Shown here: in pieces, positions 1-33,569 of the stretch
How positions within the stretch are numbered: the stretch's first letter is position 1
Layout of the letters: every line of letters begins with the position of its first letter
NCBI GenBank assembly: GCA_002256025.1
Contig: NKIB01000251.1
Location: 1-34,285 of the forward strand
Direction of reading: 5' to 3'
DNA: 34,285 bases
Source: Asterionella formosa
Lineage: Eukaryota
Program-made: the position numbers and the translations under genes
The notes under the pieces: model-generated
The model's database searches: none
Seen by the model: only the letters and a program-made list of their open reading frames with translations
What the model was told of the DNA's origin: nothing

Positions 1-1708
1 TGCGGAATGTTCCAGCTGCCTTGTATACAGCCTTTGCTGTATCGGCCAACTCATCTTCCTCATCAACTTCTGCATGGTACCTCATCTTGCCGACGCAACT
101 GAGGGGAATATGTTGTTTCATTTCTTCGCTGAATCCCTTCGTCCACAAACAAATAACACGATATCCACGCTTCAGTATTTCGTCGACAATGCAGCATCCG
201 GTTGAGTATGGATCAACCATAACGACAACCTCGTTGGAGGCGTCCACAGTTGTCATAGCACGACGGAGCATTTGAAGCTCAGGTCGATCGTTCGACATGT
301 GACGAAACAATGTCGGCCCATCACCCGAAAACGCACGGTAACGTGTCTGATCAGGTTGGTCAGCAAAAGTGACATGCGTGTCGGCGGTGGGTCTCTTCAA
401 GTTCTCTAACTTTGTCTCATAGTTTAACATTCCATTGAATTCTTCCATGTATCTGATAAACTCAATGTCCTTCTTCAAGACTTCTTCGTCGGGGTGCATG
501 AGAATGACACTACCAATCGACGTGATGAGATCGGTAGTATACTCGACCTCATCTCCCACTTTGACTCCACTCTCCAATGAGACGAAGGATGGCAAATGCT
601 TTATGACTTCAAAACCTGGCGTTCCCTTCACTTTTCCGCGAGAGTATGATACCATGATTACATAATCACCTGCAGCCTTGAATGGCGACGGCGGCTTGTT
701 GGGCAGTTTGTGAAACTGCACGGGATCCATGAAGGAATCGACCGTTGCTTCAACTTGCGAATATCCTCCCGTCAAAGCTCGGCATAGAGGACGCCAGCTT
801 CCGTCACCTCCATGGGCTCTGCAATTCATCTCAACCAAGCAAGGGCCGTCTTTGGTCATGATGACTTCACCGTGGGATGGTCCGTTCTTGATACCCAAGG
901 CGTCTAGGACACCTCTAACATAGGGAATCAAAATCTTGGCCTCTGGAGATTCTGAGTTGACAGGATGACATCCAAAGTATACAAAAGCTGCACCGTTGGC
1001 AGGTCGCTTGTCATAAACCCATAGCATAACAGTCTTGTGGACACCATCGCGAGAGACGTGGTCAACCACGTACTCCTTTCCCCGCAGGAACTCTTGACAC
1101 AAGACAGAGGGACAATCCCCTCCGTTGACCATTTGAGAGTTCATCAAAAGCTCAAAGTGTTCCTTGGCTTCTTCAAAGGTGCTGCACAGTTTGACACCGT
1201 CCGACCCGGCAGATGCTGTTGGTTTCAGTACCACAGGAAATTCTTCCTCTTGGAGGAAGCTCTCCACTTCATCGAAGATGGCGCCTCCCGCTTGCCGTAC
1301 CGAACGCAGCCCTGCAGCTTTGATTACTTCCTGTTGAATCTTCTTGTCCCTGCGACAAGCATCAGTCCCATTGGTAAGGAGGCCTAGCTTTTCAGACATG
1401 GCATCCGCCAGATCCACACCAGCTTCGCCTCCTGCCAAGCAAGCCACCATTTTGTGATCACCGCATGCCGCTTGTAGACTGGCAACAGTGGCATCCAATG
1501 AGTTCTCGACTTCGTCAACATTAGCAAGGTAATCCAAATGACCACAGGCGATAGGGACATGCGTCTTCATTTCTTCTGCAAACCCGAAGGTCCACAGCGC
1601 CACCACTTGGTAGCCACGCAGCTTGAATTCCCGGACTATCAAACATCCCGTAGAGTATGGATCGACAACGATCACCGCTTCTTGATCAGGTATGGGTGCG
1701 AGTGTCAT
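1..1708 (-). CDS. Tandem (two-module) ATP-grasp ligase, L-amino-acid/peptide ligase-like; 3' end lies outside the window
   Basis: Manual translation of the minus strand from ATG at 1708 (MTLAPIPDQEAVIVVDPYSTGC...) found no stop before the window edge (>=569 codons). ATP-grasp motifs: RRDKKIQQE, PVVLKPTASAGSDGV, QEFLRGKEYVVD, GPSHGEV, LVEMNCRAHGG. A second N-terminal module (VVVMVDPYSTGCCIVDEILKRGYRVICLWTKGFSEEMK) starts near 230. Confidence 0.9.
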   Translation of the reverse strand, partial: MTLAPIPDQEAVIVVDPYSTGCLIVREFKLRGYQVVALWTFGFAEEMKTHVPIACGHLDYLANVDEVENSLDATVASLQAACGDHKMVACLAGGEAGVDLADAMSEKLGLLTNGTDACRRDKKIQQEVIKAAGLRSVRQAGGAIFDEVESFLQEEEFPVVLKPTASAGSDGVKLCSTFEEAKEHFELLMNSQMVNGGDCPSVLCQEFLRGKEYVVDHVSRDGVHKTVMLWVYDKRPANGAAFVYFGCHPVNSESPEAKILIPYVRGVLDALGIKNGPSHGEVIMTKDGPCLVEMNCRAHGGDGSWRPLCRALTGGYSQVEATVDSFMDPVQFHKLPNKPPSPFKAAGDYVIMVSYSRGKVKGTPGFEVIKHLPSFVSLESGVKVGDEVEYTTDLITSIGSVILMHPDEEVLKKDIEFIRYMEEFNGMLNYETKLENLKRPTADTHVTFADQPDQTRYRAFSGDGPTLFRHMSNDRPELQMLRRAMTTVDASNEVVVMVDPYSTGCCIVDEILKRGYRVICLWTKGFSEEMKQHIPLSCVGKMRYHAEVDEEDELADTAKAVYKAAGTFR

Positions 1709-2634
1709 TGGAAGTGGAGATATCTTGGCCTGGTCGCAGACAAATGTGGTTTTTCAGCTTGTTGCCGACTTTTGCGATATCTCTACATCTACAGTATCCG
1801 TATGCACAGTATCATATATATCTTTACTTGTTTCTTTGATGCTGCATGGGCGAAGGAAGAATGCCGTTTTTTGTTGTGACCTCCTCTGGATATATGATAT
1901 TAAACTGTAGCGACATACAGTATGGATTACGTAATGTAGAGACTACTGGTGGTATGTACAGCATGGTGTAGAACTACAGGATGGTGGTCTAGAAATCATG
2001 CATTTTTTTAATATGTACCGGTATTCTACCGTTATTTACTCCGAGTACCTGTTCTAGTCTATGAACTGACAGGTACGGTGACCATACCTGTACTGGTACT
2101 GGTGGCAGGTACCAGGTACCAGGTACCCATCAATGTAGTTTCATGATGTACCCAGCAACTTACCGGTATTCGGGTATGTATGCACTGATGAAATTTCGGG
2201 ACCACTGCCGCTTGTCGTTCCTACATACCGTATGTACGGAAAATTGCAACTCCAAGCTGCCGCCGACGCAACTGAATTCACATCATTATCCTCGTCATAG
2301 GTCGAATCTATCACATTTTTTGTTGCATTTGCTTGCGCGCTGGTTCCTGCTTATCAGGTACTCTGACGATCACTGCAACACAGCTATATAGCAACTGGCC
2401 TGAGGACAATCTGTGATACACGCCTGCTGCTGGTTGATTTAGTACACATATAAAAAGTGGAATCGGTCAAGATCTTGAACGACCGACACGACGATACATC
2501 AATCTATTAAACGGTATCTCAATTGCAGGACTTTCATCATCAGCTGATACAATCTACTGCACCTTCGCAACAGAGCTCAACAGATCGGTACATTAACGTT
2601 AACCTTCCTTTGTTTACGAAACATACAGTGCGAC

Positions 2635-4053
2635 ATGACAGCGTCTGCTGGTAGTAAAGACGTCCCCAAGAAATGTGGCTTGATGGAACTCCTCATCTTC
2701 CTCGCCGCTATTGTTTCTGGAACCGCATGCAGCATTTGTAGCAAGACAATGATGGACTTGCACGGGGTCGGAATGACAGGAGCCACGGAGCCATTCTCCA
2801 AACCGCTCTTTCAAACCTTTGGAATGTTTGTCGGTATGCTCTTTGGATTGGCCATGCATTGTGCAGTGGTCTTCTTTGGACTCCCGTTTCCAGGATATAT
2901 CCATCCGCTCAAGGCGACGACCACGAACGGAGCAGCAGCCGATGAAAAAACGGCATTGATTAGCGGCAGCAAACTCAGTGCCGTTGCGGCGAAACCTGCA
3001 GTCTCGCTTCCCATTTGGATGTATTTCTTCCTCGCGATTCCGTCGATATTTGATCTCGGAGCAACTGCACTCTGCATGATGGGCCTGAGATACTTGGATG
3101 TTTCTGTGTATCAGCTCCTTCGCGGATCCGGAATTATTTTCGTCGCCATTATGAAGCATAACTTTCTCGGCAATCATCTGTATCACTTTCAGTGGTTGGG
3201 CGTTGTCTTTAATGTCCTATCTGTCGTTTTGGTGGGACTTACGGCAGTCCTATCGGAAGGAAGTTCGGGGAAGGAAACTTACGACTCTACACATGCACTC
3301 TTGGGGATTGGGCTTGTCATGACGGGAGCCTTCGTACAAGCCTTGCAGTACGTCCTTGAAGAAAAGGTTATGACGATGGACATCCCATCTCCTCCGCTGC
3401 TGTTGATTGGCATGGAAGGTCTGTGGGGCACCATTCTGAGTCTTTTTGTGGTGTATCCAGTGGCATATTTCTTGCCAGGAGATGACCACGGGAGTTATGA
3501 AAACCCATTCAACACGTGGCACATGGTCGTCAATACTCCTGCCATTCAGGAAATGTTTGTCGTGTACTTTGTCGCGATTTTCTCCTACAATCTGTTCGCT
3601 GTGTTGGTCACTTTTACGATGAACTCCATTTGGCACGCCATTTTGGACAATTTCCGCCCAATCACAGTTTGGCTGGTCGATATGGTGATTTTCTACCTCA
3701 TATCTCCCTCCTTTGGTGAACCATGGACCCACTGGTCGTACCTTCAGTTGCTTGGTATGGGCGTCCTTCTCTTTGGAACTGCGGTCTACAATGCTCCCAA
3801 TGCTGGATCTATCAAGTTGCTGGGTGCTTGGTGGGCCCTTGGCTTTGACTTTACCGAAGAGTACGCAAAGATTGATTCCGATGCGGAAGAGCAAGCGCTC
3901 GACGCCGAATGGCAAGAGCGTCAGACTTTATTCAAGAGCCGGGCCAATTCGAGTTTCATTGGAGGGCGGTCTCCTTTTCTTACATCCGTCATTTCTAGCC
4001 CTTCGACGAGGATGCTTCCACTGATACAGGCGGATGGAACTAGCGTTGTATAG
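2635..4053 (+). CDS. SLC35F6-like drug/metabolite-transporter superfamily membrane protein (nucleotide-sugar/CRT-like)
   Basis: 472-aa ORF with about 10 hydrophobic segments. Motifs FSKPLFQTFGMFVGM, PSIFDLGATAL, SVYQLLRGSGIIF, QYVLEEK, IGMEGLWG and ILDNFRPITVW are typical of SLC35F6-type proteins. Confidence 0.88.
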   Translation: MTASAGSKDVPKKCGLMELLIFLAAIVSGTACSICSKTMMDLHGVGMTGATEPFSKPLFQTFGMFVGMLFGLAMHCAVVFFGLPFPGYIHPLKATTTNGAAADEKTALISGSKLSAVAAKPAVSLPIWMYFFLAIPSIFDLGATALCMMGLRYLDVSVYQLLRGSGIIFVAIMKHNFLGNHLYHFQWLGVVFNVLSVVLVGLTAVLSEGSSGKETYDSTHALLGIGLVMTGAFVQALQYVLEEKVMTMDIPSPPLLLIGMEGLWGTILSLFVVYPVAYFLPGDDHGSYENPFNTWHMVVNTPAIQEMFVVYFVAIFSYNLFAVLVTFTMNSIWHAILDNFRPITVWLVDMVIFYLISPSFGEPWTHWSYLQLLGMGVLLFGTAVYNAPNAGSIKLLGAWWALGFDFTEEYAKIDSDAEEQALDAEWQERQTLFKSRANSSFIGGRSPFLTSVISSPSTRMLPLIQADGTSVV

Positions 4054-4689
4054 CGGGGAGAAGAATCGTATGCTATACTTAGATATGACTCCTACTTGAT
4101 GTTTTGTGCTGTATATAGTTTAGGTTTCTATGCGGGCTAAACATTAAATTGAAACTTCGCGAGCCAGTTTTATTTCGTTTTCCCTCGCCTCACCGGGATG
4201 GGATGAGTGCTTTTCCCTTTATTTTGAATCGATTGCAGAATAATTTTTCAGGCGAACCTTGTACTTTTGCCACCTCTCTGCTGATTTTTTATTTACGTTG
4301 TTGTTGTATTGAGCATGGTACAATGCTACTTCATTTTGGCTTTATGTAAAACATTGCATATTTTCAAAACTTGACGCCATTGCATTTTCATTTGGGCAGC
4401 CATCACAATTACGATTGATCATGATCATCTCCCACCCTCAATGAACTAAACTATAATGCATTTAACATCACTGTAGATGTCATAGTGGTTTGGAAGGGAA
4501 ATGAATGGCTCGATCTCAGTTCAAAACCATGAAAACGCAATTAATGGACCGACTCTGCTAAATACTAATTGAAGGACATCATGGCTGTAATTGTATTAGA
4601 CAACTCTATTTTGTTCTTGTTCTCACAGTGCGGATACCTGGCTATTCTGGAGTAGTCTACTACTAGCTATTTTACTTCATCGTGATTTT

Positions 4690-6720
4690 AGTGTTGTCAT
4701 TAGTAATTTCATCCCATTTTACTAGGTATGCTTTGGCCTTAAGTCCAATAGACTGGATTCAGTCTGTATTTTCAATCCATTGCCCCTTGTTCAATTCATC
4801 AAATATTTCATTTCTTAAAAGATAATTTATATCTTCAGAACTGCAGGTTTCTGGAAGTATACATTTTAATAAGTTTCTAGGTTTAAAAATAAATTCAGTA
4901 GCATGAGAAGCCTGTCTGCCAAAATTATATCAAAATTATTTGTGCGGGATGGCACGAAAATGAAAATTGACAATGAGTTAAGGTACCATCAATTCATGCC
5001 TTTCCAATGACATTCACCCATCATTGTTGGTCCGAAATCATCATTTGAATATCACCTAGACACTTTTTAGCTAGGTATAAAAGCGATTATAAAAAAAACC
5101 TAGTTTAGTACAAATATAGACCATCAAGGAATCCGCTGGTAGTCAAGCTACGAAGGTTTCCGGGTTTTGAAAAAGGGTCATCACCATGGTGACAAAGCAA
5201 ACGTTCATGGCAGGATGGGAAGATGAGTTGCACAACCATTTTACCGGACACTGAGGTCGGTGTGTTCCGTTTGTGCCAGGCAGCTACCACATACGACAAA
5301 TTCTACACACGAGTATATGGAGAAACGGAATCCAGAATCAGCTTGGATGTAATGCTTGATGTCGAAATCGAGCATCACATCATCAGCATATCATCACTCA
5401 CACCGGGAGGCATTGCAGCTGTTACCAGGTACCACGATGATGCATGTCTCACAAGTGTACATACGGTATGTGGTAGTTATATTTTGTGAGGGAGTATAAG
5501 GTAATGTACCGGTACTGTGTTTGGATAAAAATGGAACAGCAATAATTCATTTGGACATTGTAACTGCATAAAATCATACACTATTCCTCTTAACTATTAC
5601 CAGTACTCTAGAATCCCATGGATAAATGCTTTTCTTCCTTACAAAGGATCAACAACCAGCAATGTCTACAGTCTCAACTGAGGATAGCGGCATATATAAT
5701 GCTGATTGTTACCATAATTTAAAACCATTTTGTCTACTACTGCAGAGTACATTCTTGCCATCCAAGGATCGAGAAGCTCATCATCATTGCTTGTCCTCAA
5801 AACCTGTTAAAAAGTGACAAATCTCTTGTCTTGGTCATGGCCTGGAAACAACTAGTATTTTCAACAGCTGCATTGAATTGACATAAATACATTGCAAGTG
5901 CAAAGATTAGACAGATAACCATTGGATTGGGATATGCAGGCCTTGAGAATCCTGACTGGTCACCTTTTAAATATTTATCGCTCAAAAATGCTGTTTTTGG
6001 TCATCACAACGGCCATTGCAATGGCCATCACCTAACTTCTCTTATCTTTGTTCCTTACTGTGATCTTGTGGATTGCTTGTTCACTGCTGGTTCAAGAATT
6101 GTAACATTTGGACTTATAGAATGAGTTGATGGTTCCTCAAGGGCACTCATTCCAATTTAGTTTTGAGCAATTTTAACATTGTTTGTCAAGGCAAGCACCA
6201 GCAAACATCTTGAAATTAAAAAGCAAAATGCACAGGACATTTGGTCTGATTAGGGGGAATGAATGAACCATGACAAGTTTGATGAGCCTCAAAACTGCTA
6301 AGGAAGATAATTAATGCTAGAATATAATTAATAACATAGATTAGTAAGTGGAAAGGATTAGAAAGTTCAATTATATAGCAACCATTATGAATCATATGTG
6401 GTTGAGAACATGCATATTCATTGCTTTGGTCCACCTTGCTTTGTGTACTTCGCAACAATTATATCAAAGTCTGTATGGCCGTAAGTGGAGACCAAAATGC
6501 AATGCATTCAAGATTTAATTGCCTTCCTTTTTTTCCTTCCTCCAAAGATGTTTACAAACAGAAATCACATCAAATATGTTGAGCACACTCAATTTTTAGA
6601 AAATGAATTTGTGTGGGTACATGTTCCTGTTTCAACAAACTATAAAGGAGTACCCACATTTCCCATAACATCATTCTAGTATCCTTGATTGATACAGGCA
6701 TTCTCTTGTCACCATGAATC
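4690..6720 (-). mobile_element. Heavily decayed Crypton-like tyrosine-recombinase transposon remnant
   Basis: Broken minus-strand frames give, in order: KGDQSG..AYPNPMVICLIFALAMYL (~5970-5880), PSVETVDIAGC*SF (resembles P..V..RAGWS), LLFHF (resembles LPPHF) and FRAIP. This order matches my recollection of stramenopile Crypton-type recombinases. Many stops and frameshifts; boundaries approximate. Confidence 0.45.
5222..5383 (+). repeat. 162-bp direct repeat, copy 1 (copy 2 at 8276-8437)
   Basis: GATGAGTTGCACAACC...GAGCATCACATCAT; only two mismatches seen between the copies. Confidence 0.95.
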
Positions 6721-6823
6721 GACTACAGTAAAGTTCGTACTTGGTTCGAATTTTATCATATAAGAAACTTTAATGATTTTAGTCGAAAGAAAGAGTACTG
6801 AAACGTTGAATCTCAGTTTTTAG

Positions 6824-7972
6824 GTGGTACCGTATGCCCGATTTCATCCTCACAAATATAGTTCTCACTCTATCTTGCCTGCCTTTGCTCTATTCGGGCT
6901 TGCAATAGGCAACGTTCGTCTTTCTTTGATCCCATCGTCAGCTGCTTGTAATGCTAGTTGAAGCGGATCGGTGAGTACAACAGTGAAACACTGAATGTGG
7001 ATTTTAGATCGTATTTATCGACTTTCCAATTTGATTGCTTCCGTGGTTTGTTTTGATCGCTTCCATCGTTGTTTGTCATTCCGCACTGTCGTTTTGATTC
7101 GATTGTTATTTATCTACATAAGAACCAATGCATTTATCAATGACTACTCGTTGAAGATGTGTTATTGTTCCGTTGTTGATCATATTTGTTGACTTGTACA
7201 GTCATTGACAATGATGTCAATATTGCCGCCAAGCAATGCTTTTCTTGTACTAACGCGCATTGCTACATTTCTACTACGAGTTCGTATCAGAAGCTACATG
7301 AATATTCAGCTAGAGGGAGTCAATAGTGCTGAATCAGCCTGGCGATTATACTCAATCAGAATGGATTGGAATGGAATGATGATCAGGGTTGTTCGGTGGG
7401 AGGAACGAGGACTGTGGGCGGAAGGACTGCAACTTGTGTCAGGCTCCTACAGCTATGTGCATGGTTACAGCAAGCAGATCATCTATGCTAGCTACTACAT
7501 AACGATGCAGGTCAAGATTGGATTCAGCTTTTCCCTTCTTATTTCGGTTGCTGATTGTGTGGTGATGGAAATTCAATTGCCTGTGTAAGTGCTACAATGT
7601 CACAATGCATAAATCTCCATTGAAACTCTTATTTTTTACTACATTTCTAACCCAAAACAATTTTTCTATTTCTCATTTTTTGCTACTTATTACATCGCAT
7701 TTCATAGTTTGGTTGCTCCAAACATCATGTTCAATTTCCATTGATGTTGCATGTTACAATCATTCTCGTTTGTTTTATGCTTGTTGTACCAGCAGGTACC
7801 ATCTCTATGCATATTGCCGTTATTCTGGTTGTCATGCTAAAATCGGCAATTTTATTGCCGAAAAATTCGATGTTCCCCATATGGCCCTTAAATAAAAATT
7901 ACTTAAGAAATTACTTAGAGCCTAAAAATTACTTAGAAGCACCCGAATGGCAAGACGATAGCTGGAGCGGTA
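6824..7972 (+). repeat. ~1.15-kb unclassified dispersed repeat, copy 1 (inverted diverged copy at ~28932-30034)
   Basis: Colinear similarity along the whole length, e.g. ATGATGTCAATATTGCCGCCAAGCAATGCTTTTCTTGTACTAA and CCCGAATGGCAAGAC. No credible ORF. Confidence 0.9.
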
Positions 7973-8275
7973 AATTCCCATACACAAATGATTCTTACGT
8001 AATTTGCATCGAAGTGCAGAAACACAGATTCCACCAGGAAAACTGCAACATGTGTAAAATTCCACGAGAAAACAGCAACCAGAAAAAAACGGCCATTTGT
8101 CCGTTATTCCCCTCAAATGATCAAACTTCACTCCAAGGTCAACAAAGAAGTAATTGATATACCGTGTTAAATAATAAACTGGGAATGAGCGGAGGTTCAG
8201 ACTTCGGCTGAAAAACCGGCCTATTGTCCGAACATTTCTACAAAAATCAGCTTAAGTGTCCGGTAGATGTCTGAT

Positions 8276-8437
8276 GATGAGTTGCACAACCATTTTACCG
8301 GACACTGAGGTCGGTGTGTTCCGTTTGTGCCAGGCAGCTACCACATACGACAAATTCTACACACGAGTAAATGGAGAAACGGATTCCAGAATCAGCTTGG
8401 ATGTAATGCTTGATGTCGAAATCGAGCATCACATCAT
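8276..8437 (+). repeat. 162-bp direct repeat, copy 2
   Basis: Near-identical to 5222-5383. Confidence 0.95.
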
Positions 8438-8579
8438 GGATACAGAAGCAAGAAGTTGGAACAACCGGTATTCGGGACCTACTGACATTAACTACAAATA
8501 CTCAAGAATACACGGGCATCACTGACGACGATCAAAAGAAAATGCATACACTGGAGAATAAACAGAGAACACGCACACA

Positions 8580-8672
8580 GCACTGTTACTGTATGGACTA
8601 AAAAACCGGTTTTAATTGTTTAGATTTGTTGGGTCACAAGTGCGATTATTGGATAGCTTTAATGTACTATAA
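8580..8672 (+). mobile_element. 5'-truncated SINE-like fragment carrying the family B' tail
   Basis: CACAAGTGCGATTATT.GATAGCTTTAATGTACTATAA is shared with 10282-10319, with weaker similarity further upstream. Confidence 0.55.
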
Positions 8673-9480
8673 GATTTAATTGACAATTTTCAAATGCACG
8701 TAGTCATAAAGCACTTGCCTTTGTGATGTACTCCTCCCTGATGAGGGAGTACCTAGAAGCAACAGGAACTGATAGTACATAGTATGTATCCCGGTATTAG
8801 TATGTGAATTTAATCGGTAGGGGAAGGGCTTAGTGGTTGGTGACCTATTGTGCATAGCATTATCTATATAGCTATCAGACTATGTAAATAGCTATAATTA
8901 GCTAACCGAAGCTATATAGCAACGTTAGCTAATTCCAGGAGCTCTACTAAAGTAGATGCCAAATAACTTGATGGATCTGGCGTGCAAAGTGAGTGAAAAA
9001 AACACTAATGCAGAGTTATGATTCAGTATAGACATCTAGGACTTATATTTAGCCTATTGATTACCTCTTCAGAACACATACTACAACGTTTGATCTCGAC
9101 GTAGGGTCTCATACTACATTGATTTCATAATGGTCAAAGGGTCAATAAAACTAAACTATGACTTATGCTCTAGTAGTAAGCGGTATCCCATAAGTAATCT
9201 TTACTTAGTAATATCAAAGCTAGCTAGCTAGGATTAAACCTAGTAAAGATTAGTGGATGAACTAGATTTCCCTTAAGTCTAAACCAAGGGTGACAAGTCC
9301 TACTAGTATGCAGATGTTTCAAGGGTTCTCAAATGACCCCTTTCCAAGATAAGATCTGCACAGCGAGTAGTTAATATAAAATTTAACCTCACTTATAATG
9401 AGCTCTTCAAGACTAGTCATTTCCTAGAAGGGTAGACCGCATAGCGCTTCCTGGCGCTGTAACAGTCGCTCCTGATGTTG

Positions 9481-9687
9481 ATGTACTTATGTACTTAATT
9501 ACCAACCCAAGATCATCCCAACAAACGTGGTAACTTCGGGCGTTGGTGCACGGGGATCTGTACCGGTTTAATCGTCTGTATGGTACAACAGGAACATTTT
9601 TTAATTCATTACTCCCGCCCCCGGAACCCTAGGGACTAAATGAAAAAGAAAGACAGGTAGAGAAGAATGCAGGAATCTAACCCGCCA
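9481..9687 (-). mobile_element. tRNA-headed SINE-like element, family B, 5'-truncated copy
   Basis: Homologous to ~17523-17730. Keeps the T-arm-like GCGGGTTAGATTCCTGC and ends in a short TAAGTACA repeat. Confidence 0.7.
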
Positions 9688-10040
9688 GTTAGCACATTAC
9701 CTTTGATCTGAGGTTGTGAGGTTCGATTCCCGCAAATTTTATGAGAAGCAATTGTTGGGTTCGACTCTCACACCTTACCTTCCCGCACGGTCTTGCCATG
9801 GTGTGCAAGAAAAGTGGGTGTGGCACCCCTACAAGTAGCTTGTGCCGCCTTCCTAGGTGGCGGTCGGAGTTTCCCCTAACGCTGCGGGTAAGACAAAAAC
9901 CTCTTGCGAAAGGTGGTTGGGGACTCACCTACACTAACGAAACTAGGGAAGCATAGGTCTTGTTGGCAGGTAGCACAATGGAAGACTTGCCTATAGAAGA
10001 AAATGAGGGAGTACAAATGCGATATAAAAATAATATCCTT
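9688..10040 (+). mobile_element. tRNA-headed SINE-like element, family A, copy 1 (5'-truncated)
   Basis: B-box GGTTCGATTCC at 9720-9730 and a second B-box-like GGGTTCGACTC at 9757-9767. Body homologous to 24410-24795 and 25242-25599. Confidence 0.78.
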
Positions 10041-10109
10041 TTATTTTAACAACATTTAGCTCACTCTTTTCTTATTCCCTGAACACGTTTAGACTTGATC
10101 ACCCAAGCA

Positions 10110-10319
10110 GAGTAGGGCACTTAGCACACCTTCTGCACTGGTGAGTTTGATTGGTCCTGTATTCTACACCTGTATTTTTCATGTAGTCCCTAGTGTTCTG
10201 GTTGTTGCGGCTGAGAAGAAGACGGGTCCTGTTGTAACATACGGACAAATAGAACAATTAATTGCTCAAAGTGTGCATGGACACAAGTGCGATTATTTGA
10301 TAGCTTTAATGTACTATAA
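10110..10319 (+). mobile_element. SINE-like element, family B' (family B head and core with a different 3' tail)
   Basis: CCTG.ATTCT.CAC...TTTTTCATGTAGTCCCTAG...TGCGGCT...GTTGTA..CATAC.GAC matches the reverse complement of ~17600-17720. The sequence then switches to the tail shared with 8635-8672. Confidence 0.62.
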
Positions 10320-10423
10320 AAGATCGACTTTCATGAACAAGGACCAGCTTTATGTTTTGATTTGTTGGATGAAATCTATCAAAAAAATAAACAAGAAGAA
10401 TTCATATCATGGAAGCAAAGCGA

Positions 10424-10544
10424 AAATTGATATTGGGTTTGCTGAAAGATTACGTAAAGAATCAATTTTATATGAGGCGAGATAAATTGATATTGGGTTC
10501 GCTGAAAGGTTACGTAAAGAATCAATTTTTTATAAGGGGCGATA
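10424..10544. repeat. Imperfect 60-bp tandem duplication; looser copies near 10737 and 11157
   Basis: AAATTGATATTGGGTT(T/C)GCTGAAAG.TTACGTAAAGAATCAATTTT occurs at 10424 and 10484. Confidence 0.85.
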
Positions 10545-11882
10545 TTTTTTCGAAAACGTATTGTTATAACGAAGAAGAATTCACACATGTGTGAAAATTC
10601 GATTAGGATCCACCAAGCATTCAAGAACCGAAACAATCAGTTCGGTTAGGTTTGTGCTGACAATTCAAAAAGTGCATATGTATTGCTTGTTTTGTGGAAT
10701 AATCTATCATCAGTATAGAATGAAGTATAGAAACCGAAAATTGATTTGGGTCCGCTAAGATTTGAACAAAAAACTTTCGATTTGAATCTACTAGATCGAA
10801 AACTGCTTTGTAGTGTTGGATGATCTAAGAACATATGATGAAGGCCAATGATTCATATTGAAAGTGAGACTTTGCGTCTGTCTGCCGAGAGTTCAACTCA
10901 ATCAAACAATTCTTTTTATATCAAATAATTCAAAAAGTAAAAACATACTGTTTTATTTTTTTGGATAATTTCATCATCATGACGAAGCTTATTTATTTAT
11001 ATTGAATGTGAAATCGGTTGGGTCCACTGATAGCCACTTCAACTCGAAAAATGTAGCACGATTTGATGTGCATCAATTTGCTAAAATGAGGACCATATAA
11101 TTGTGATATTGGATAACTCTATAATCATAACAAAGAATAGTAAAAATCTGGAAAGAAAAATTATGTTTGGGTTTGCTGAGCAACAGATTATTAAAAATCA
11201 ATTTCTATTTGAGTTGAGTTTGACAGGTTTTGTTCGAAGAAGAGAAGTTTGCAATAATTTGCCGTCAAACATTGCAAGTGGTTCTGCTGAGTACCGGTAT
11301 AGCCAAGTTCTGTTGGCATAATGGAGGAAGCAAATATTTGTGATAGCTACAAGGAAATAATAAATGAAGTGCAAATCTTGGAAAACATTCTGAACTACTT
11401 AACTTGTTTAGATTGCTGTGCATTTGGACCTGTATCAATTACTCAATGACTTACCAAGCCTAATAAGCATTCACCAAGAGGATGATTAATGGGAGCAGCC
11501 ATCCAGTCATGCAGTAATGAAATGATGGAACAATGAGATGATGGTGCATAAGTGTGTTGATTGTGATGCATGTTTCAAAACTCTTTCTAACACACTTGAA
11601 CTCACGAAAAACTTATTCGTGTACACAACACAGGATTCCATGAATATATTTTGCCTTTGGTAGAATACAACTACGATCTAGTACCAGGCAGCTACCGGAC
11701 AATTGTCCGGGAGAACGCTGTGAAGGTGACTTTCGCTGTAACTTCAACCGAAAATCACTATGTATGTAGCTTCACCGTTTTCCTCTTGATTATGGGCAGT
11801 TTGATCATTTTCTCAAATACGCACGCACCGGACGATTGTGAACCTTATTGTGGCATTACAAGCAACAATGGGTGCGTTGTAT

Positions 11883-12340
11883 TACCGGTACCAGGTACCA
11901 GGTACCGGTACCTGGTACCAGTTTGTAGGACCTGTGACTCGATACCTGGTACCAGGTACCACATGGTGCACCTCGTACCGTTCCGTACAATACCATGTAT
12001 CCTACACCGTGGTACTTGGAGTGCCAGGGAAGAAAATTGTGAGCGATGAAGGAGAAATATATTAACCCGGTACCTGGTACCAGGTACTATGCTATCTAGC
12101 TGTACATAGAGTTTTCCTTAGCATAGGAAGAACCGTCTTTTTCCACAGGGTACCTGGTACCAGGAAACTAGGTGCATATTGTGCGGTTGTACGAGGATGG
12201 AAATAATTTATGTACCGGTATATAAAATATGTTTGTACCGGTATAATAATATAAGCAATGGTGCTCGTTCGATTTTGCAATTTCCCGAGGAGTACATCTG
12301 AACTTTCCGCTAAACACCTTTTGTTGTATTATACCGGTAA
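11883..12340. repeat. Dense array of palindromic TACCGGTA / GGTACC(A/T)GGTACC motifs upstream of the PTR gene
   Basis: For example TACCGGTACCAGGTACCAGGTACCGGTACCTGGTACCA at 11883-11920, with further copies up to ~12340. Confidence 0.85.
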
Positions 12341-12591
12341 TATCCAATGCATGGACCGCATCGCTCCGGAAGAGATTCGGTGGCTTTGCTCGCCTGTATG
12401 GCTGATCGTATACCACGTATGAACTTATTCATAAATCGAAACGCACTGCATTGTTTTGAATGAAACTGACTGTATTGATTGAACCAATAGAAAGCTGACG
12501 ACAATTCCCCTTCTGATTCTGCTACCGCCGAGAACACGACAACATTCTGAAGCCCTGCGATAATACGACCTGCCCGGACTCACGCATCGCC

Positions 12592-14487
12592 ATGGCGGAC
12601 CCGCAAATCAGAGAAGCCGCAAGGACGCTGATTGATCCTCAGAATCGAATCATCAATTACCAGCCTAAGGAAGACGAAGTCATTCCCTCCAATGTGTCCA
12701 CTGTAGACCAATTAGAACTTGTCCCAGATGAATTCAAGTCCACCAACAAGCACCGTCCGTTGAAGTTGAAAGATGATCGTGGCAAAGTCAGCCTATATTA
12801 CCTGAAACCCATGGCGAATTCCGTCATCTTTATCCTCATGGTGGAACTCTTAGAGCGATTTGCATTTTACGGCGTCAATTACACTCAAACCTCATTTCTC
12901 ACCGGTGCCTACAACAAACATTGGAACGCTGACATGTCGGCAGTCACAGCTTCTAGCTATGTCTCGATCAGCACTGCAATCGCCTACACAGCACCGTTTG
13001 GGGGAGCTATTCTAGCCGATAGCCTCATGGGAGAATATTGGACAATCATCTTCGGGACCTTGGTCTTCTACATTCCAGGCATTTTGTTGATCGCTCTGAC
13101 GACTGTTCCTTACTTGCTTGGACCAACCTTTAATCACACGGCACTCTGCACCGGACTCTTATTTTTATGGCCAATCGGAACAGGAATGGTCAAGGCAGTT
13201 GTTAATGTCTTTGGAGCGAAGCAGTTTCACCCGTTTCTGCAGTCATCGCTGATTGAATCATATTATGTTAGCTTCTATATGTGCATCAACATTGGAGCAT
13301 TAGCCGGAGGAATTATCGTTCCGATTATGGCGCAAAAAGATATTTCTGTGGCGTACATGGTTCCAGTCGGGATGCTCGCTTGTGGAATTTCGTGCTTCCT
13401 TTTTGGATCTCATCGATACGTTGTGGCGAAACCACGGGGTGACCTGCTCTCGACCACGGCAGAAGAACGAGCTTCGGGACTTTCCCTCTGGTCTGTGCTC
13501 AAAATGGTCATGCTCATTGTTCCCTTCTGCATAGCCTACTCACAAATGGCAACAACCTTTATTGTTCAAGGAACTGTCATGCAAAAAGCCTTTGGCTTTA
13601 TCGACGCTGCCAGTATGAACAACGCCGACGCTGTTGCCGTCTTGTTCTTTGGTTATTGGATTGGTGGAGTGCTCTATCCTACCTTGGCCAAATACAACAT
13701 CAAGATTCCCACAACATACAAATTTGCCCTGGGATCTGGTCTAGGATCGATTGCTATCTTATGGGCTGTTTTTGTGGAACGCAAGATTCATTCAACCTAC
13801 AACGCCACAGGCGGAAAGATTTCAGTTCTTTGGCAGACGTTGTCTTTTGCCTTGATTGGCATGGGGGAAATATTTGTCGTCTCAAGTGCATACGAAGCAG
13901 CCTTCAAGGCAGCACCACCGAGGAAGAAGGCGCTCGCGTCAGCGATAAACCTCTTTGCCGTCGGTGGCCTCCCAAATGTACTATGCATCTTTCTCTACAA
14001 TGTCTGCAGCGCTTGGTTTGAAAACGCCGAGGGCAAGGCAAACATTCGCTCCATTAAGAATTATACGGAAGCGCAGGTGGGAAAATACTTTTGGGTCCTG
14101 TTTGGAATATCTTTCTTAGGCGTTGTTGTGAATTTGTTGCCCGGCGTTAGGGACTGGGTTGCCAGGTTGGAAGAGTCGGCCGCTGAAGCTGTCAAGACCC
14201 CCTGTTCAACACCCCAGTTATCTACCAGGAAGAAGCAAAGAGAAGAAGGTGAATCATCGCCGCTGATTCGTACTCGGCAGGTCCAAAAGTATCTCGAATA
14301 CGGAGCAGTACCGATTCTGCACAAGTCGGGGAGTATGCGTGCTGCTCCCTTTTTGAAAGCGACGGACGAAACTAGCAAGCAGCGACAACTGAAAATGGTT
14401 CAAAAATTTCAACGACATCACTATGAACGACCTGTGGCGCCCAAAACGACAGAAAGGGCAAAAGATGACTCTAACCTAGATGTTTAA
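12592..14487 (+). CDS. Proton-dependent oligopeptide transporter (POT/PTR, SLC15/NPF family, MFS)
   Basis: 631-aa ORF with the ExxERFxxYG signature (ELLERFAFYG), GAILADSLMGEYWTI, GTGMVKAVVNVFGAKQF, FYMCINIGAL and GMGEIF; about 12 TM segments. Confidence 0.93.
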   Translation: MADPQIREAARTLIDPQNRIINYQPKEDEVIPSNVSTVDQLELVPDEFKSTNKHRPLKLKDDRGKVSLYYLKPMANSVIFILMVELLERFAFYGVNYTQTSFLTGAYNKHWNADMSAVTASSYVSISTAIAYTAPFGGAILADSLMGEYWTIIFGTLVFYIPGILLIALTTVPYLLGPTFNHTALCTGLLFLWPIGTGMVKAVVNVFGAKQFHPFLQSSLIESYYVSFYMCINIGALAGGIIVPIMAQKDISVAYMVPVGMLACGISCFLFGSHRYVVAKPRGDLLSTTAEERASGLSLWSVLKMVMLIVPFCIAYSQMATTFIVQGTVMQKAFGFIDAASMNNADAVAVLFFGYWIGGVLYPTLAKYNIKIPTTYKFALGSGLGSIAILWAVFVERKIHSTYNATGGKISVLWQTLSFALIGMGEIFVVSSAYEAAFKAAPPRKKALASAINLFAVGGLPNVLCIFLYNVCSAWFENAEGKANIRSIKNYTEAQVGKYFWVLFGISFLGVVVNLLPGVRDWVARLEESAAEAVKTPCSTPQLSTRKKQREEGESSPLIRTRQVQKYLEYGAVPILHKSGSMRAAPFLKATDETSKQRQLKMVQKFQRHHYERPVAPKTTERAKDDSNLDV

Positions 14488-20422: not shown

Positions 20423-21420
20423 AGCTCAAGCTTTCATTTTGAAATATCAGAACTGATATTATGATTGAGGAGTAGACTGCAATCTTTTTTTAATCTACAA
20501 TCCCAACGAATTCATAAGAATGATACAGAATGTGTCATAAAGTGCGAAATGCTCAAATAGTTCCTCAGGTCTTCCGGTACTTGGATTCTGTGCGCTTGGG
20601 TCATTTAACTGATGACGAGAGCAGGATAATTCTATGCTTCGTTCTTCTACATTGATCATACTCTACTTGTTGCTGTAACGGTATTTTAGATCTTGGCTTT
20701 ATTGGCTGCCATTGCTATGATTGACTTTTGCACCTTGGGCCCCCCACCCCAGTTTTTACCCAACCCTTGTACCTGGCATACAGTGATGACAGCTTGCAAT
20801 TTCTTTGGCAATCAATTTATTCATTAATCACTGTATTATTAGAATCTCCTTAAGGAGATCAATCCCTGTATGCCAAGACAGTTACTTCAAATACGTTTGG
20901 AAGTAAAGAAATCAGCATGTTGCTATATATGTAGGCTACATACAATAAAACAATATCTCTCGGCTTTTTCTTCTAAATGTAAACAGTACATACACATATA
21001 AACGGTGTATACACTTCGTCAACCGACTTTGTATGACGACATAAGTAGGGGCTCACCATTATGCACGCAACAGACTTTTTCTATTAGACTTCATGATCGT
21101 ATATATTTCGATATATATTTCTTGCATATGTCTAATGTTACGTATAAGTGACCGAACACATACAAAGATATTAGTACCGGAGTACATATGTATCAAGGAA
21201 TAATTTAGCCTCCGCATCTGCCACCATTCATCATGATCACTTCAATCGCAACGACAGGACGACACGACATTATCTGAAACAAAACAGAGGAAGGAAATAC
21301 CGGTATATATGGATTCCTATTATGTCCGAGACGTGTAATAGACTATAGACTAATAGGCAATGGTGTTTCGGGTAGTCTAATAGCAGGAACCAGTGATTAT
21401 CATCATCCGTGTCTACCAAT

Positions 21421-22125
21421 ATGGCGAAATTTCCCTTTCATCGCTTTGTCTTCTTTCTCATTGTTATTTCAAAGGAATCATCGCTTGGATTTTATGCACG
21501 GAATCAACACGCGAGTTCGCCAAGATCTGAATATGCCCTGTCCACAAATATCTTTCTATCCGGAGGTGCAGCTTCCAATTCAGACACATTCAATCCTTCC
21601 TTCACGTTCCGAACCATGGAACTCACTAAGCCGATGGGTCTCCTCCTGGAGGAAGTAGATGAGAACAGTCCCCAAGGAGTTCAAGTAGCTGGAATGAGTT
21701 TTGGAGCCGCTCAAGCCTCTCGTGAGGAACAAGTGGATTTATGTATTGGGGACATCTTGACAATCATTGACAATCAGGACTGTTCGACATGGACATTTGA
21801 TAAAATCATGGAAGCCTTGGCAGAGGCGGAAAGTCCCGTTTGTCTACAGTTTAAACGAGACTCCGAAGCTGTTGCCGTGCGATTTTCACAAAATGGAGTT
21901 GCCGTTGCCGCAAAGCCTGGCACGCCATTTGGAATACTCGCAGCGCAAGCAAAGGTGCGAGTTCCATATTCTTGTAGGAATGGAGGATGTGGGACTTGCG
22001 AACAGATTCTGCTTATTCCAGGCCAAGGAGAGCCGAGATACATTCGACCGTGTGTAGCACGTGTGCCTAAAGGACAGGATAGGATGACTATCATTGCCAG
22101 CGACCGCTATGACCTAAATAATTAA
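21421..22125 (+). CDS. PDZ-domain + 2Fe-2S ferredoxin-domain protein, probably plastid-targeted
   Basis: Signal-peptide-like start ending SLG-FY followed by a Ser-rich segment. PDZ-like LTKPMGLLLEE...GDILTIIDNQD...FDKIMEAL. Fer2 motif VPYSCRNGGCGTC...RPC. The first ATG is at 21421 (the track starts at an upstream GTG). Confidence 0.85.
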   Translation: MAKFPFHRFVFFLIVISKESSLGFYARNQHASSPRSEYALSTNIFLSGGAASNSDTFNPSFTFRTMELTKPMGLLLEEVDENSPQGVQVAGMSFGAAQASREEQVDLCIGDILTIIDNQDCSTWTFDKIMEALAEAESPVCLQFKRDSEAVAVRFSQNGVAVAAKPGTPFGILAAQAKVRVPYSCRNGGCGTCEQILLIPGQGEPRYIRPCVARVPKGQDRMTIIASDRYDLNN

Positions 22126-25599: not shown

Positions 25600-26170
25600 T
25601 ACATAGATCTGTAGCTAAAGTGATTGTGCACATTAGGGCAAGTGAGCGAGAGAAAATCGTAGGAGTCAAAATAGCCCTGGATACCGGAGAACATTTAAGA
25701 ATCGCTTCAACTACTATCCAGAGGGAGTACCGGTATGTACCTGGCTGTAACCATGTACCGGTGGTCTGATGAAGAGAACCTGGATCTTCTTCGATGCAGT
25801 CCAAGAACGTTCCAAAATGTTCTATGGTATTCTTTCGCACATACCGATATGCCGGTAATATACCCGGTATACAGTATGGATAATAGATCATTGTTGCCAT
25901 CATGAATCCTCCACCCCCAGTGGAATCTGTATACCAGGTACTAGATACCGGTGGTAGTATCTATTATCTACTATCTACCCCACTGTTGTACACCATTATT
26001 AGCGGGCGGGTACACAAAGGAAATCTATCAATGCAGATTTTTCATACTTACTTGTCACATTTTCAAGAATTGTTCCCTGATTTTGTCCTGGGTTACACTT
26101 TATCCCGCAGGCTAGCAAAACACAAAAAAATCGTCGACCTTCATCATATTCCTTGCTTTCTTCCAAAGCT

Positions 26171-26818
26171 ATGATTTCACCCACTACCGCTACTGCAGAT
26201 GCGAAGAGATGTCCATTTGCCTCGAATTCAGGGTATGCAACGGCAGACACCAGGCAAGATTGGTTGAAACACAAAGGCATCATCGCCGATGAGTCCATGT
26301 TATCCCTTGAAGCAGACTCGGACACTTCTAAGCCACTATACTTTTGGCAAATATATTCACTGTTAGGCCATCGACCTATCCTTCATATTGTTCGCGACTT
26401 TTACTTACGAGTTTTCGATGATAGTGATGACCCTGAATTCCGAATCACCTTCACTCGACTTGGAGGAGTGGAATACCATATCCAAAGGCAGGCAGCATAC
26501 TGGATCGACTCCATGGGTGGCGGACGATTCTATCATGGTGGAAATCATCGAATCCTGTTTCATCATACGTACAATGCTGAAAAAGTGATGAATGCAACAG
26601 GTGCAGCAAGATGGATGTTTCATATGCGGGGTGCAATAAATGCATTTGATTTTTCCAGATTTCAAGATGCTCGCATCAAACCGTGCATTGTTGATTTCCT
26701 CAAAGTTCGGATGATGAAGTATGCCTTCGAGCATGATTGGATTTTCGATGAGAGCGATTTTCTCCTTGAAGGCAATGTTGAAGTTCCCCTGGGACAGCCG
26801 ACGTCAAGAGCAACCTGA
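26171..26818 (+). CDS. Truncated (2/2) globin-like protein with an N-terminal extension
   Basis: IYSLLG..I..IVRDFYLRV (B9-B10 Phe-Tyr), EYHIQRQ (E helix), MGGGRFY (GG motif), ILFHH (candidate proximal His) and AARWMFHM (G8 Trp). First ATG at 26171. Confidence 0.78.
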   Translation: MISPTTATADAKRCPFASNSGYATADTRQDWLKHKGIIADESMLSLEADSDTSKPLYFWQIYSLLGHRPILHIVRDFYLRVFDDSDDPEFRITFTRLGGVEYHIQRQAAYWIDSMGGGRFYHGGNHRILFHHTYNAEKVMNATGAARWMFHMRGAINAFDFSRFQDARIKPCIVDFLKVRMMKYAFEHDWIFDESDFLLEGNVEVPLGQPTSRAT

Positions 26819-32940: not shown

Positions 32941-33569
32941 GGTCAATCGGTCAATCGGTCAATCGAGAAACAGGAACTTGCAAGCATCCATTCTGAACGT
33001 CGCTGCAATTGGGAGGATAGCACCCACATGCCAACTGCAACCACAACAGACAGAAAACAGAAGGCTCTACTGGAACCTGCGTCTGCTGACGTCCCGGTAT
33101 TTGTCATCGAATTTACTCCCCGTCGAATTAGCTAAGTAAAAGCAGAATGATGACGAACTTGTTACCGAGCCGCCGGTAATCAAGACGTCAGCATGTCACA
33201 CTCGATGACATGCATATTTCGGTTACCGGTAACCATGAAAAATGGAATGACATACCAGGGTACCACTGAACGAAGAAGACATACAGCTACTCTATGTGCC
33301 TCCATGTAGTGCATATGAAGAATTATGCAGGATAGCTATATTGCAAAAGAAGTAGGAGAATCATAACAATCGATTGCCATGCATAGAAATTTTTCGTTGG
33401 CAGAGAAAACCGAAGTGATTGCTATCGATCGATGATTCTTTACCGGATATGTCATATACCAGTACCAGGTACCTTACTTATCACTTCACTGTGTACCAGT
33501 ATGCAGTTGTGGTGATATAATAAATCTACCGGTAGGCAACTAATTACCTGGTAACTAGGAGGTTACCTC

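Follow-up and report, generated by a model that had tools for sequence, protein, structure and literature searches.

A tandem ATP-grasp gene of the L-amino-acid-ligase type in the freshwater diatom Asterionella formosa and its transporter neighbours

1. Introduction

Which reaction might a microalga carry out with two bacterial-type ligase units in a single polypeptide? This question is raised by the left end of contig NKIB01000251.1 from the diatom Asterionella formosa (assembly GCA_002256025.1), the 34,285 nucleotides of which are referred to as the window. In its first 1,708 positions, a preliminary description made from the sequence alone had noticed an uninterrupted minus-strand open reading frame (ORF) that runs through a complete ATP-grasp module and a linker into the beginning of a second, paralogous module. 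It had likened the encoded protein to bacterial L-amino-acid ligases (LALs) of secondary metabolism and had proposed that it could catalyse one or two sequential amide-bond formations. Ribosome-independent dipeptide ligases are known mainly from bacterial antibiotic pathways, and the well-known eukaryotic example is carnosine synthase. The analysis described below leads to an account that we consider, taken as a whole, rather probable: the gene is expressed, encodes a two-module LAL-type enzyme with equal or nearly equal ligations in its two modules, and gives rise to a small peptide or amide that is moved by the products of neighbouring genes. The kind of enzyme is a known one, of which the two-module form in diatoms and oomycetes is an uncharacterized variant from a family without published function. 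At the level of abstracts, a literature search retrieved nothing about PITG_20994, the PDB entry 30vh or a tandem ATP-grasp ligase from diatoms or oomycetes.

2. A Two-Module Ligase Gene at the Contig End

The gene is read on the minus strand as a single frame of 569 codons, which starts with an ATG at 1706–1708 and continues without a stop codon up to the left window end (Table 1), and the open frame described earlier is hence real. Its description as a hidden gene does not hold, since the default ORF list leaves out all frames that run off an end, and its absence from the track therefore has no biological meaning. Within the frame, residues 10–423 constitute a full module that is followed by a linker of 60 residues and by 80 residues of a second module. 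The latter is recognized by a match of residues 491–564 to residues 9–81 (39 of 74 identical, BLASTP E 4e-24), which marks the start of a second paralogous module, and the duplicated motif VVDPYSTGC..RGY.V..LWT.GF.EEMK.H.P was indeed found twice. At the DNA level, the starts of modules 1 and 2 share no long repeat in the window, and a recent gene conversion inside the window was therefore rejected. The rest of module 2 of this gene copy falls outside the contig.

What follows beyond the cut can be read from relatives. The closest of these, on a metagenome/metatranscriptome contig (locus L101), is 88% identical over residues 2–569 and reads on directly from the cut point of the window. Its ORF is complete with 958 residues, and its module 2 contains LVEMNCRAHGGDGNWR. 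Hence, some 59% of the gene lies in the window, and the full protein measures about 960 residues. P0168 (961 residues) is likewise colinear with the window frame at 67% identity. Among longer proteins, 46 matches were obtained, 43 of which, each 997–1070 residues long, comprise two full-length modules according to the phmmer domain split. Among the named sources of these long homologues are diatoms (MMETSP entries with the partial labels ‘Cha…’ and ‘Nitzs…’, as well as Thalassiosira sp.), oomycetes (Phytophthora, Pythium, Lagenidium, Plasmopara and Peronosclerospora) and a transcriptome labelled Euplotes. A search for homologues of near length gave almost solely fragments of the same eukaryotic family.

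Other fusions of the ligase module were encountered as well. In the dinoflagellate Symbiodinium natans, a single module is joined to EF-hand domains (P0045, 1875 residues), and in P0047 (1304 residues) a ligase module is fused with an oxygenase-type domain (PF13640).

3. Kinship with Bacterial L-Amino-Acid Ligases

Profile searches and structure prediction, both of which had been suggested in the preliminary description, place the modules among ligase profiles and LAL folds. The window protein passes the ATP-grasp superfamily threshold, with 49.2 bits for PF13535 (ATP-grasp_4; cut-off 27), 37.2 bits for PF01071 (cut-off 27) and 37.1 bits for PF02655 (cut-off 23.2). Module 1 follows the PRK07206 model (NCBIfam NF005543) nearly from end to end, as residues 10–423 align to profile positions 3–409 of 416. 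Against this model, the 569-residue fragment attains 304.4 bits summed over two stretches (cut-off 302), and the single modules of L101 remain slightly below the cut-off with 292.6 and 289.4 bits. DdaF (dapdiamide A synthase) is the second-best NCBIfam model (profile positions 6–414 of 424 covered), and to this extent the proposed resemblance to DdaF stands. It does not extend to equivalog status, for which NF041595 requires 840 bits and the window protein reaches 177 (165–171 for each L101 module). The BacD equivalog NF053745, an alanine–anticapsin ligase, is matched with 32.1 bits versus a cut-off of 850.

The general LAL likeness is borne out by the nearest solved relative, PDB 30vh_A, which was deposited as ‘L-amino acid ligase’ and matches residues 12–425 with an E value of 7.7e-45, followed by BL00235 and BacD (E 5e-11 to 6e-8). 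An identification of 30vh with a Photorhabdus or Pseudomonas relative was rejected on the basis of scores of merely 210–220 bits. The LAL_C2 domain scores 18.4 bits in the window fragment, i.e. below its cut-off of 29.4, and 34 bits in full-length L101. In the AlphaFold model of P0168, which has a mean predicted local distance difference test (pLDDT) value of 85.7 and a predicted template modelling (pTM) score of 0.52, both modules are modelled confidently. Foldseek comparison with single-module folds, with the template modelling (TM) score normalized to the target, yielded 0.79 for BL00235, 0.72 for RizA and 0.69 for BacD/YwfE. With the whole chain, the top match by E value consists of carbamoyl-phosphate synthetase large subunits (2.8e-31; TM 0.29), and the corresponding profile TIGR01369 is matched with 15.6 bits versus a cut-off of 1027.

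The preliminary description had itself named orthology to an enzyme of primary metabolism such as PurD, PurT or biotin carboxylase as the finding that would speak against a ligase. A mis-read PurD, PurK, PurT or biotin carboxylase could be suspected from the automatic database names of the family, which conflict with each other (hypothetical protein, ATP-grasp domain-containing protein, biotin carboxylase, dapdiamide A synthase and argininosuccinate lyase 2), from weak Pfam matches to GARS_A and CPSase_L_D2, and from PurD and PurK structures lower down the fold-search list. Such a misreading is barely conceivable in view of scores that lie far below the curated cut-offs for purD (37 versus 288 bits), PurK (11.1 versus 327), the biotin carboxylase models (12–13 versus 740–768) and PRK02186 (103 versus 625). 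Moreover, the match to the ligase models is an end-to-end one, and both the C-terminal domain of biotin carboxylases and a lyase domain are absent. The RimK model is also matched with only 15 bits (cut-off 143). Since the curated cut-offs exclude DdaF, BacD, PurD, biotin carboxylase and RimK, the protein is, as judged from its sequence, an LAL-type enzyme that is an orthologue of none of the named ones.

The closest comparison is with bacterial ligases of the DdaF/PRK07206 group, with which the diatom protein shares an end-to-end match over about 415 residues and the same catalytic Lys/Glu/Glu/Arg set, while it differs by its two modules per chain, a conserved linker and tail, and its eukaryotic host. 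With the dipeptide-forming Bacillus ligases BacD/YwfE, BL00235 and RizA, it has the fold and a detectable LAL_C2 domain in common, but these enzymes are single-module proteins of distant sequence kinship. The large subunit of carbamoyl-phosphate synthetase offers a likeness in architecture, as its chain is the classic example of an internal duplication that yields a pair of ATP-grasp units. Its halves, however, are unequal, carry out two different phosphorylations and are joined by folded domains and a tunnel, whereas the diatom halves are near-equivalent and connected by a disordered linker. Finally, an analogy in function is provided by animal carnosine synthase (CARNS1/ATPGD1), which is likewise an ATP-grasp enzyme of eukaryotes and has a free dipeptide as its product.

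4. Catalytic Residues of Both Modules

The ATP-grasp catalytic positions were inspected in an alignment that contains both modules of each of 43 two-module proteins, 18 of them diatom-like and 25 not (86 modules), together with module 1 of the window, the numbering of which is used throughout. K162 (in VVLKP), Q205 and E293 are present in all 86 modules, E206 in 85, R297 in 84 and E281 in 83. From general ATP-grasp knowledge, we take K162 to be the ATP-binding lysine, Q205/E206 to form the hinge, E281 and E293 to be the Mg-binding glutamates, and R297 to be the catalytic arginine. Module 1 of the window carries all of these positions. Residue N295 is found in 34 of 36 diatom-like modules. Of the 50 modules outside this group, 49 have Gly at the position, as does the consensus of bacterial-type single-module relatives. 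The motif of this subfamily is therefore better written as E-x-[NG]-x-R.

The earlier proposal to examine this motif in module 2 can be answered from L101 and the other homologues, in which it is kept (the window copy's own module 2 lies off the contig), and neither a stop codon nor a loss of catalytic residues was found in module 2 of the relatives. Thus, both modules are predicted to be catalytically competent on account of their kept catalytic residues. Alternatively, one module might be a non-catalytic pseudo-enzyme with a regulatory or scaffolding role that supports the other. Diatom module 1 does evolve slightly faster than module 2 (63.9% versus 68.7% mean pairwise identity), and some gene models are substituted at catalytic columns in one module. 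Yet nearly all 43 proteins retain K162, E293 and R297 in module 1 as well as in module 2, and the deviant rows are few and spread over both modules, which renders a pseudo-enzyme quite improbable.

5. One Reaction or Two

With two competent modules, the question arises whether they perform the same ligation or two different ones. To compare them, 13 diatom proteins and the window were examined column by column, with conservation defined as at least 85% in both modules. Not a single column is conserved but different between modules 1 and 2, while 158 columns are conserved with the same residue, and lowering the threshold to 70% reveals just three differences, all of which are conservative. In the diatoms, the mean identity between modules 1 and 2 (59.4%) is close to that among modules 1 (63.9%), and that among modules 2 amounts to 68.7%. 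The lack of fixed differences favours near-equivalent units over two different sequential ligations, and that part of the preliminary description which envisaged sequential steps is hence not favoured in diatoms. As far as can be told from conservation, the two diatom modules most likely catalyse identical or nearly identical ligations and act as a pair of fused protomers.

The competing possibility is a two-step assembly line, in which modules of different specificity act in sequence to afford a tripeptide or a doubly amidated amino acid. Parallels are provided by the bacterial pairs DdaG/DdaF and RhiM/RhiC and by the unequal halves of carbamoyl-phosphate synthetase, i.e. of the two-step tandem ATP-grasp enzyme that also heads the whole-chain fold matches by E value. 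The intact catalytic residues of both modules would suit this scheme. Furthermore, among 15 closely related oomycete proteins, 55 fixed differences between modules 1 and 2 stand against 173 shared columns and leave room for two specificities there, and POT carriers, one of which is encoded in the window (see Section 9), take di- as well as tripeptides. On the other hand, the 55 oomycete differences may simply mirror the close kinship of the sampled proteins (77–82% identity), modules 1 and 2 of P0003 are 78% identical and sisters in the tree, and none of the diatom columns described above is conserved but different between the modules at the 85% threshold. We therefore regard an assembly line as unlikely.

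For the preferred fused pair, a complex prediction of module 1 with module 2 of L101 gave a median score of 0.42 (best control 0.00), a value reached by 116 of 157 solved complexes and by 2 of 215 mismatched pairs. Scores of up to 0.60 were obtained for 18 of those 157 solved complexes and for both passing mismatches. The prediction runs agree in at least 95% of contacts with a partner pLDDT of at least 88. These results lend weak support to a packing of module 1 against module 2.

6. Distribution and Origin of the Tandem Form

The family to which the modules belong is large. In an exhaustive profile-free search, module 1 retrieved 6775 representative proteins at E ≤ 0.001, including bacterial relatives, and 1061 at E ≤ 1e-30. 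Emiliania huxleyi and Durusdinium possess eukaryotic forms with a single module. Of 594 pattern matches in prokaryote genomes, 580 encode relatives, and the best 80 of these prokaryotic relatives, from Sorangium, Vibrio penaeicida, Streptomyces, Micromonospora, Photorhabdus, Burkholderia and others, are all single-module proteins of about 410–435 residues with 31–39% identity.

Phylogenetic analysis against bacterial ligases, as had been recommended at the outset, was carried out with a quick maximum-likelihood tree of 80 rows. Besides module 1 of the window and 16 of the 80 bacterial loci, it contains 15 rows of single-module or other type. The tandem proteins were split into modules and are represented by 12 of the 18 diatom-like sequences and by 12 of the 25 others. 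In this tree, the eukaryotic modules form a clade of their own that contains every eukaryotic row (support 100; 98 in a tree of 38 rows). Diatom modules 1 and 2 together constitute one clade (support 99, 25 rows), which is sister to the single-module algal proteins (support 100, 36 rows together), and modules 1 and 2 of the core oomycetes form a separate clade (support 96, 14 rows). The quick 38-row tree, computed under a site-heterogeneous model, gives the same picture (95, 100 and 90). A constraint that unites every module 1 row in a single clade lowers the log-likelihood by 181 units and is rejected by the approximately unbiased (AU) test (p-AU 1.4e-48), for which the group was named post hoc from the first tree.

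The position of diatom modules 1 and 2 next to each other and apart from the oomycete pair implies that the duplication was repeated or that an old tandem was homogenized. On the basis of the sequences, either separate duplications in diatoms and oomycetes or intragenic conversion of an old tandem could thus account for the present form. Separate origins are supported by the single-module algal proteins placed between the tandem groups and by differences in layout, as the diatom modules are connected by a linker of 50–130 residues, while the oomycete modules abut directly behind an N-terminal extension of about 120 residues. Homogenization, in turn, is supported by three further lineages (P0036, P0044 and the P0023 group), each of which has its own modules paired or intermingled in the tree, and by the sister relationship of the two P0003 modules.

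7. Linker and C-Terminal Tail

Diatom proteins further share conserved motifs outside the catalytic modules. In the linker of the window protein, the conserved motifs are YETKLENLKRP, R-x-F-S-x-D-G-P-x-L, R-H-M-S-N-D-R-P-E-L and R-x-M-T-T-V-D-A-S, which across diatoms take the forms YETKLENLKRP, H-R-R-V-F-S-S-D-G-P-x-L-I-R-H-M-S-N-D-R-P-E-L and K-R-M-T-T-V-D-S-S. The tail behind module 2 repeats the pattern of the linker, such that each diatom module is followed by H-R-R-x-x-S-S-D and then by S-x-D-R-P-[ED]-[LM]-[FY], and a frequent C-terminal end is H-R-R-[IV]-x-S-S-D-R-P-D-[ML]-[FY]. In P0168, linker residues 437–508 have pLDDT values below 50 and are modelled as disordered. None of the linker and tail motifs was found in the oomycete and single-module algal relatives.

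The basic R-R-x-x-S sites within these segments suggest phospho-regulation of linker and tail. A different role could be envisioned if the enzyme, instead of joining free amino acids, attached them to a protein or peptide, perhaps its own conserved tail, in the manner of RimK, tubulin-tyrosine ligase or the ATP-grasp enzymes of ribosomally synthesized and post-translationally modified peptides. A disordered yet conserved tail behind each diatom module would fit a docking, regulatory or substrate role. Such an activity is nonetheless highly improbable, because the close named or solved relatives all join small molecules, the RimK model is missed by a wide margin (see Section 3), and the tail motif is missing in oomycete and single-module algal relatives with the same catalytic core. 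The R-R-x-x-S pattern itself would be equally consistent with phospho-regulation.

8. Expression

The gene is transcribed, as RNA contigs of three runs from two studies (two polyA RNA-Seq and one cDNA RNA-Seq) cover positions 482–1999 with at least 99% identity and without a joint within the frame. The runs that contain the stretch are labelled as lake or freshwater metagenomes. Towards the right, the RNA contigs end at 1881, 1992 and 1999, and RNA cover resumes at 2300–2390 at the start of the neighbouring gene, while one DNA run spans the gap. This weakly hints at an intron-free transcript with a 5′ untranslated region (UTR) of about 170–290 bases. To the left, one RNA contig extends 76 letters beyond the end of the window.

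Over positions 1–480, the public RNA and DNA assemblies are broken into pieces of 30–350 bases, and one high-depth RNA contig displays 7 differences. This fragmentation may result from branching of the assembly graph between similar modules or between strains.

9. Neighbouring Genes

Two of the further genes in the window encode membrane transporters (Table 1). An SLC35F-like gene, oriented head to head with that of the ligase, encodes a protein that is conserved across diatoms, with its best named relative in the freshwater diatom Fragilaria crotonensis. The second encodes a proton-coupled peptide transporter of the POT family. Both recur in a survey of 31 related metagenome loci. The SLC35F-like gene is divergent and upstream in three of the seven loci with at least 1.5 kilobases (kb) of upstream flank (L086, L087 and L102; 61–63% identity), and was not found upstream in the other four (L092, L094, L097 and L106). 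The POT gene occurs in three of the ten loci that have flanks of 1.5 kb or more on either side (orthologue-level matches of 57–60% identity, within 4 kb of the ligase gene), albeit in varying arrangement, i.e. downstream and convergent in L081, downstream on the same strand in L086, and upstream past the SLC35F-like gene in L087, with a fourth, weak partial match at the end of L089. Indirect evidence links five further pairs of ligase and SLC35F-like genes, the longest contigs of which are equal in size and match in source; for two of the five, these contigs measure just 11.4 and 12.8 kb. Apart from the two transporters, the window and the related loci have no neighbour in common.

These loci represent few independent lineages, since one and the same gene is present in L102 and L103 (100% identity), L092 and L094 apparently belong to one organism, and L081, L086 and L087 are akin, being 73–77% identical to each other and 66–68% identical to the window.

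Table 1. Features of the window with their supporting evidence.
Feature	Position	Strand	Evidence
Ligase ORF, first 569 residues (~59%) of a ~960-residue tandem ATP-grasp ligase	2..1708	-	Cut at the left window end; frame and colinearity with P0168 and L101
Module 1, complete LAL-type ATP-grasp unit, residues ~9–429	422..1684	-	ATP-grasp_4 at 156–303; PRK07206 at 10–423; PDB 30vh_A at 12–425
K162 codon (VVLKP), ATP-binding lysine	1223..1225	-	K in 86 of 86 modules
Module 1 E-x-N-x-R motif codons, E293-M-N295-C-R297	818..832	-	Alignment of 86 modules
Linker, residues ~430–489	242..421	-	Linkers and C-terminal tails of 17 proteins compared; P0168 model
Module 2 start, residues 490–569, paralogous to 9–81	2..241	-	53% identity, E 4e-24; continues to a full module in L101
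Probable 5′ UTR and transcript start zone	1709..1999	-	RNA contig ends at 1881, 1992 and 1999
SLC35F/nucleotide-sugar-transporter-like DMT-superfamily membrane protein, 472 residues	2635..4053	+	SLC35F 32.9 bits (cut-off 21); divergent
POT/PTR2 proton-coupled peptide transporter, 631 residues, ExxERF motif	12592..14487	+	PTR2 148.6 bits; VELLERFAFY in the translation
PDZ and 2Fe-2S ferredoxin-like ORF	21409–22125	+	
Bacterial-like (truncated) globin ORF	26153–26818	+	
Ankyrin-repeat ORF	31648–32946	-	

The remaining ORFs of Table 1, with PDZ/ferredoxin-like, globin and ankyrin-repeat features, do not recur near the ligase gene in the related loci. The 8.5 kb between the SLC35F-like and POT genes (4054–12591) are AT-rich (GC 0.34–0.43), hold small tandem repeats and lack any ORF of at least 150 codons.

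A DNA motif, GGTACC[AT]GGTACC, has 12 matches in the window versus 0.04 expected, with runs at 2108–2127 and 11887–12161 and, with one mismatch, further sites at 5421 and 33461. It hence sits in the intergenic region of the ligase and SLC35F-like genes as well as 430–700 bases upstream of the POT gene. A shared promoter or regulatory element is nevertheless less probable, since the motif has no match in 111 fetched loci and DNA contigs break in its run, at 2106–2133. Both observations give it the appearance of a genome-specific repeat, and it is probably a dispersed repeat specific to the A. formosa genome.

In single related loci, additional neighbours were seen. A PDZ/peptidase S41 gene (C-terminal processing protease) is convergent and directly downstream in L100 (3658–4416, minus strand) and L103 (3575–4975, minus strand), with copies that are 83% identical. 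In L097, a second ATP-grasp gene (5–964, minus strand) is head to head with the tandem ligase gene (2581–5658, plus strand). Beyond the SLC35F-like gene, L086 (1493–2329, minus strand) and L087 (3378–4427, minus strand) share an ORF of 33–34% identity without a Pfam match, which might be a further gene of the neighbourhood in this lineage. As it has no match in the window, it was rejected as a fourth cluster gene.

Transporter genes also accompany the bacterial relatives. Within 1.5 kb of the ligase gene, an EamA (DMT) transporter gene is present in 10 of 80 bacterial loci from several phyla (L001, L002, L003, L008, L009, L023, L045, L049, L067 and L071), where it adjoins a single-module ligase. 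Among these is Sorangium, the closest bacterial locus by E value. The bacterial EamA neighbours are mutually orthologous (26–31% identity, E 1e-29 to 1e-48 among four), and ligase and EamA appear to form a conserved, uncharacterized ligase–exporter pair. Six annotated bacterial loci look like clusters for small amino-acid-derived metabolites. A joint transfer of ligase and transporter from bacteria to diatoms was rejected for lack of evidence, because the diatom SLC35F-like protein is without specific similarity to EamA, and the bacterial pairing is thus a parallel that does not argue for co-transfer.

10. Proposed Function and Biological Meaning

Taken together, a freshwater diatom would express a nuclear gene without introns, of which positions 2..1708 (minus strand) hold the 5′-terminal 59%, and the full chain would consist of module 1, a disordered linker bearing conserved motifs, module 2 and a tail similar to the linker. 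Following the chemistry of the family, each module may bind ATP-Mg and convert an amino acid or a related small acid into an acyl-phosphate by phosphorylation of its carboxylate. The acyl group could then be passed to the amine of a second substrate, which would afford an amide bond without involvement of the ribosome. In diatoms, both modules of the putative fused protomer pair would catalyse the same or nearly the same ligation. The product would be a small peptide or an amino-acid amide, presumably made in the cytosol, as no leader peptide is readable in the window copy, and might be moved across a membrane by the SLC35F-like DMT carrier and the POT peptide transporter. The recurring POT neighbour gives indirect support to a peptide product. 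An analogy for such a pairing is found in animals, where POT-family (SLC15) carriers transport carnosine, although the genes for carnosine synthase and the SLC15/POT carriers are not known to be clustered there.

Several points weigh against this account. With respect to the equivalence of the modules, the missing fixed differences could stem from gene conversion instead of shared function, and the specificity of such ligases can depend on a few variable residues. Deviations at catalytic columns are concentrated in four gene models (P0013, P0014, P0018 and P0019), which may be mis-predicted or may reflect genuine decay. As to the fused pair, the full-length model of P0168, with its pTM of 0.52 and disordered linker, gives no confident arrangement of the modules. 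Furthermore, LdmS, a characterized ligase of the same kind, is a monomer (PMC9486568), so that a fused dimer follows no rule of the family. Concerning transport, the transporter neighbours are missing from L092/L094, L097, L106 and L109, the POT gene of the window is 10.9 kb away from the ligase gene, and the lineages with transporter neighbours may merely share inherited synteny. Moreover, the best match between the diatom SLC35F-like protein and the bacterial EamA neighbours has an E value of 0.004 over 55 residues, and a profile search gave no match.

A more far-reaching scenario, which we put forward tentatively and consider doubtful in its entirety, is that of a conserved diatom peptide cluster independent of nonribosomal peptide synthetases. 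In this case, the tandem ligase, the divergent SLC35F-like carrier and the POT transporter would together make and move a small peptide, for example an osmolyte, signal, chelator or allelochemical, with the tails serving as a regulatory switch and with a ligase core that was doubled or homogenized separately in diatoms and oomycetes. Separate doubling or homogenization in the two groups would point to a general advantage of the fused pair. If true, this would be among the very few metabolic gene clusters known in diatoms, of which the domoic-acid cluster is an example.

The two-module form occurs in diatoms, a group of major primary producers, as well as in oomycetes, among which are important plant pathogens, and both of its modules are under selection to remain active. 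The recurring transporters, one of them a di- and tripeptide carrier, lead to an assayable hypothesis, namely that a small peptide metabolite is made and then transported, which, if true, would direct metabolomics to an unassigned algal and oomycete compound. Whether it proceeded by repeated fusion or by intragenic homogenization, the evolution of the modules provides a clear-cut setting in which to ask why tandem enzymes arise.

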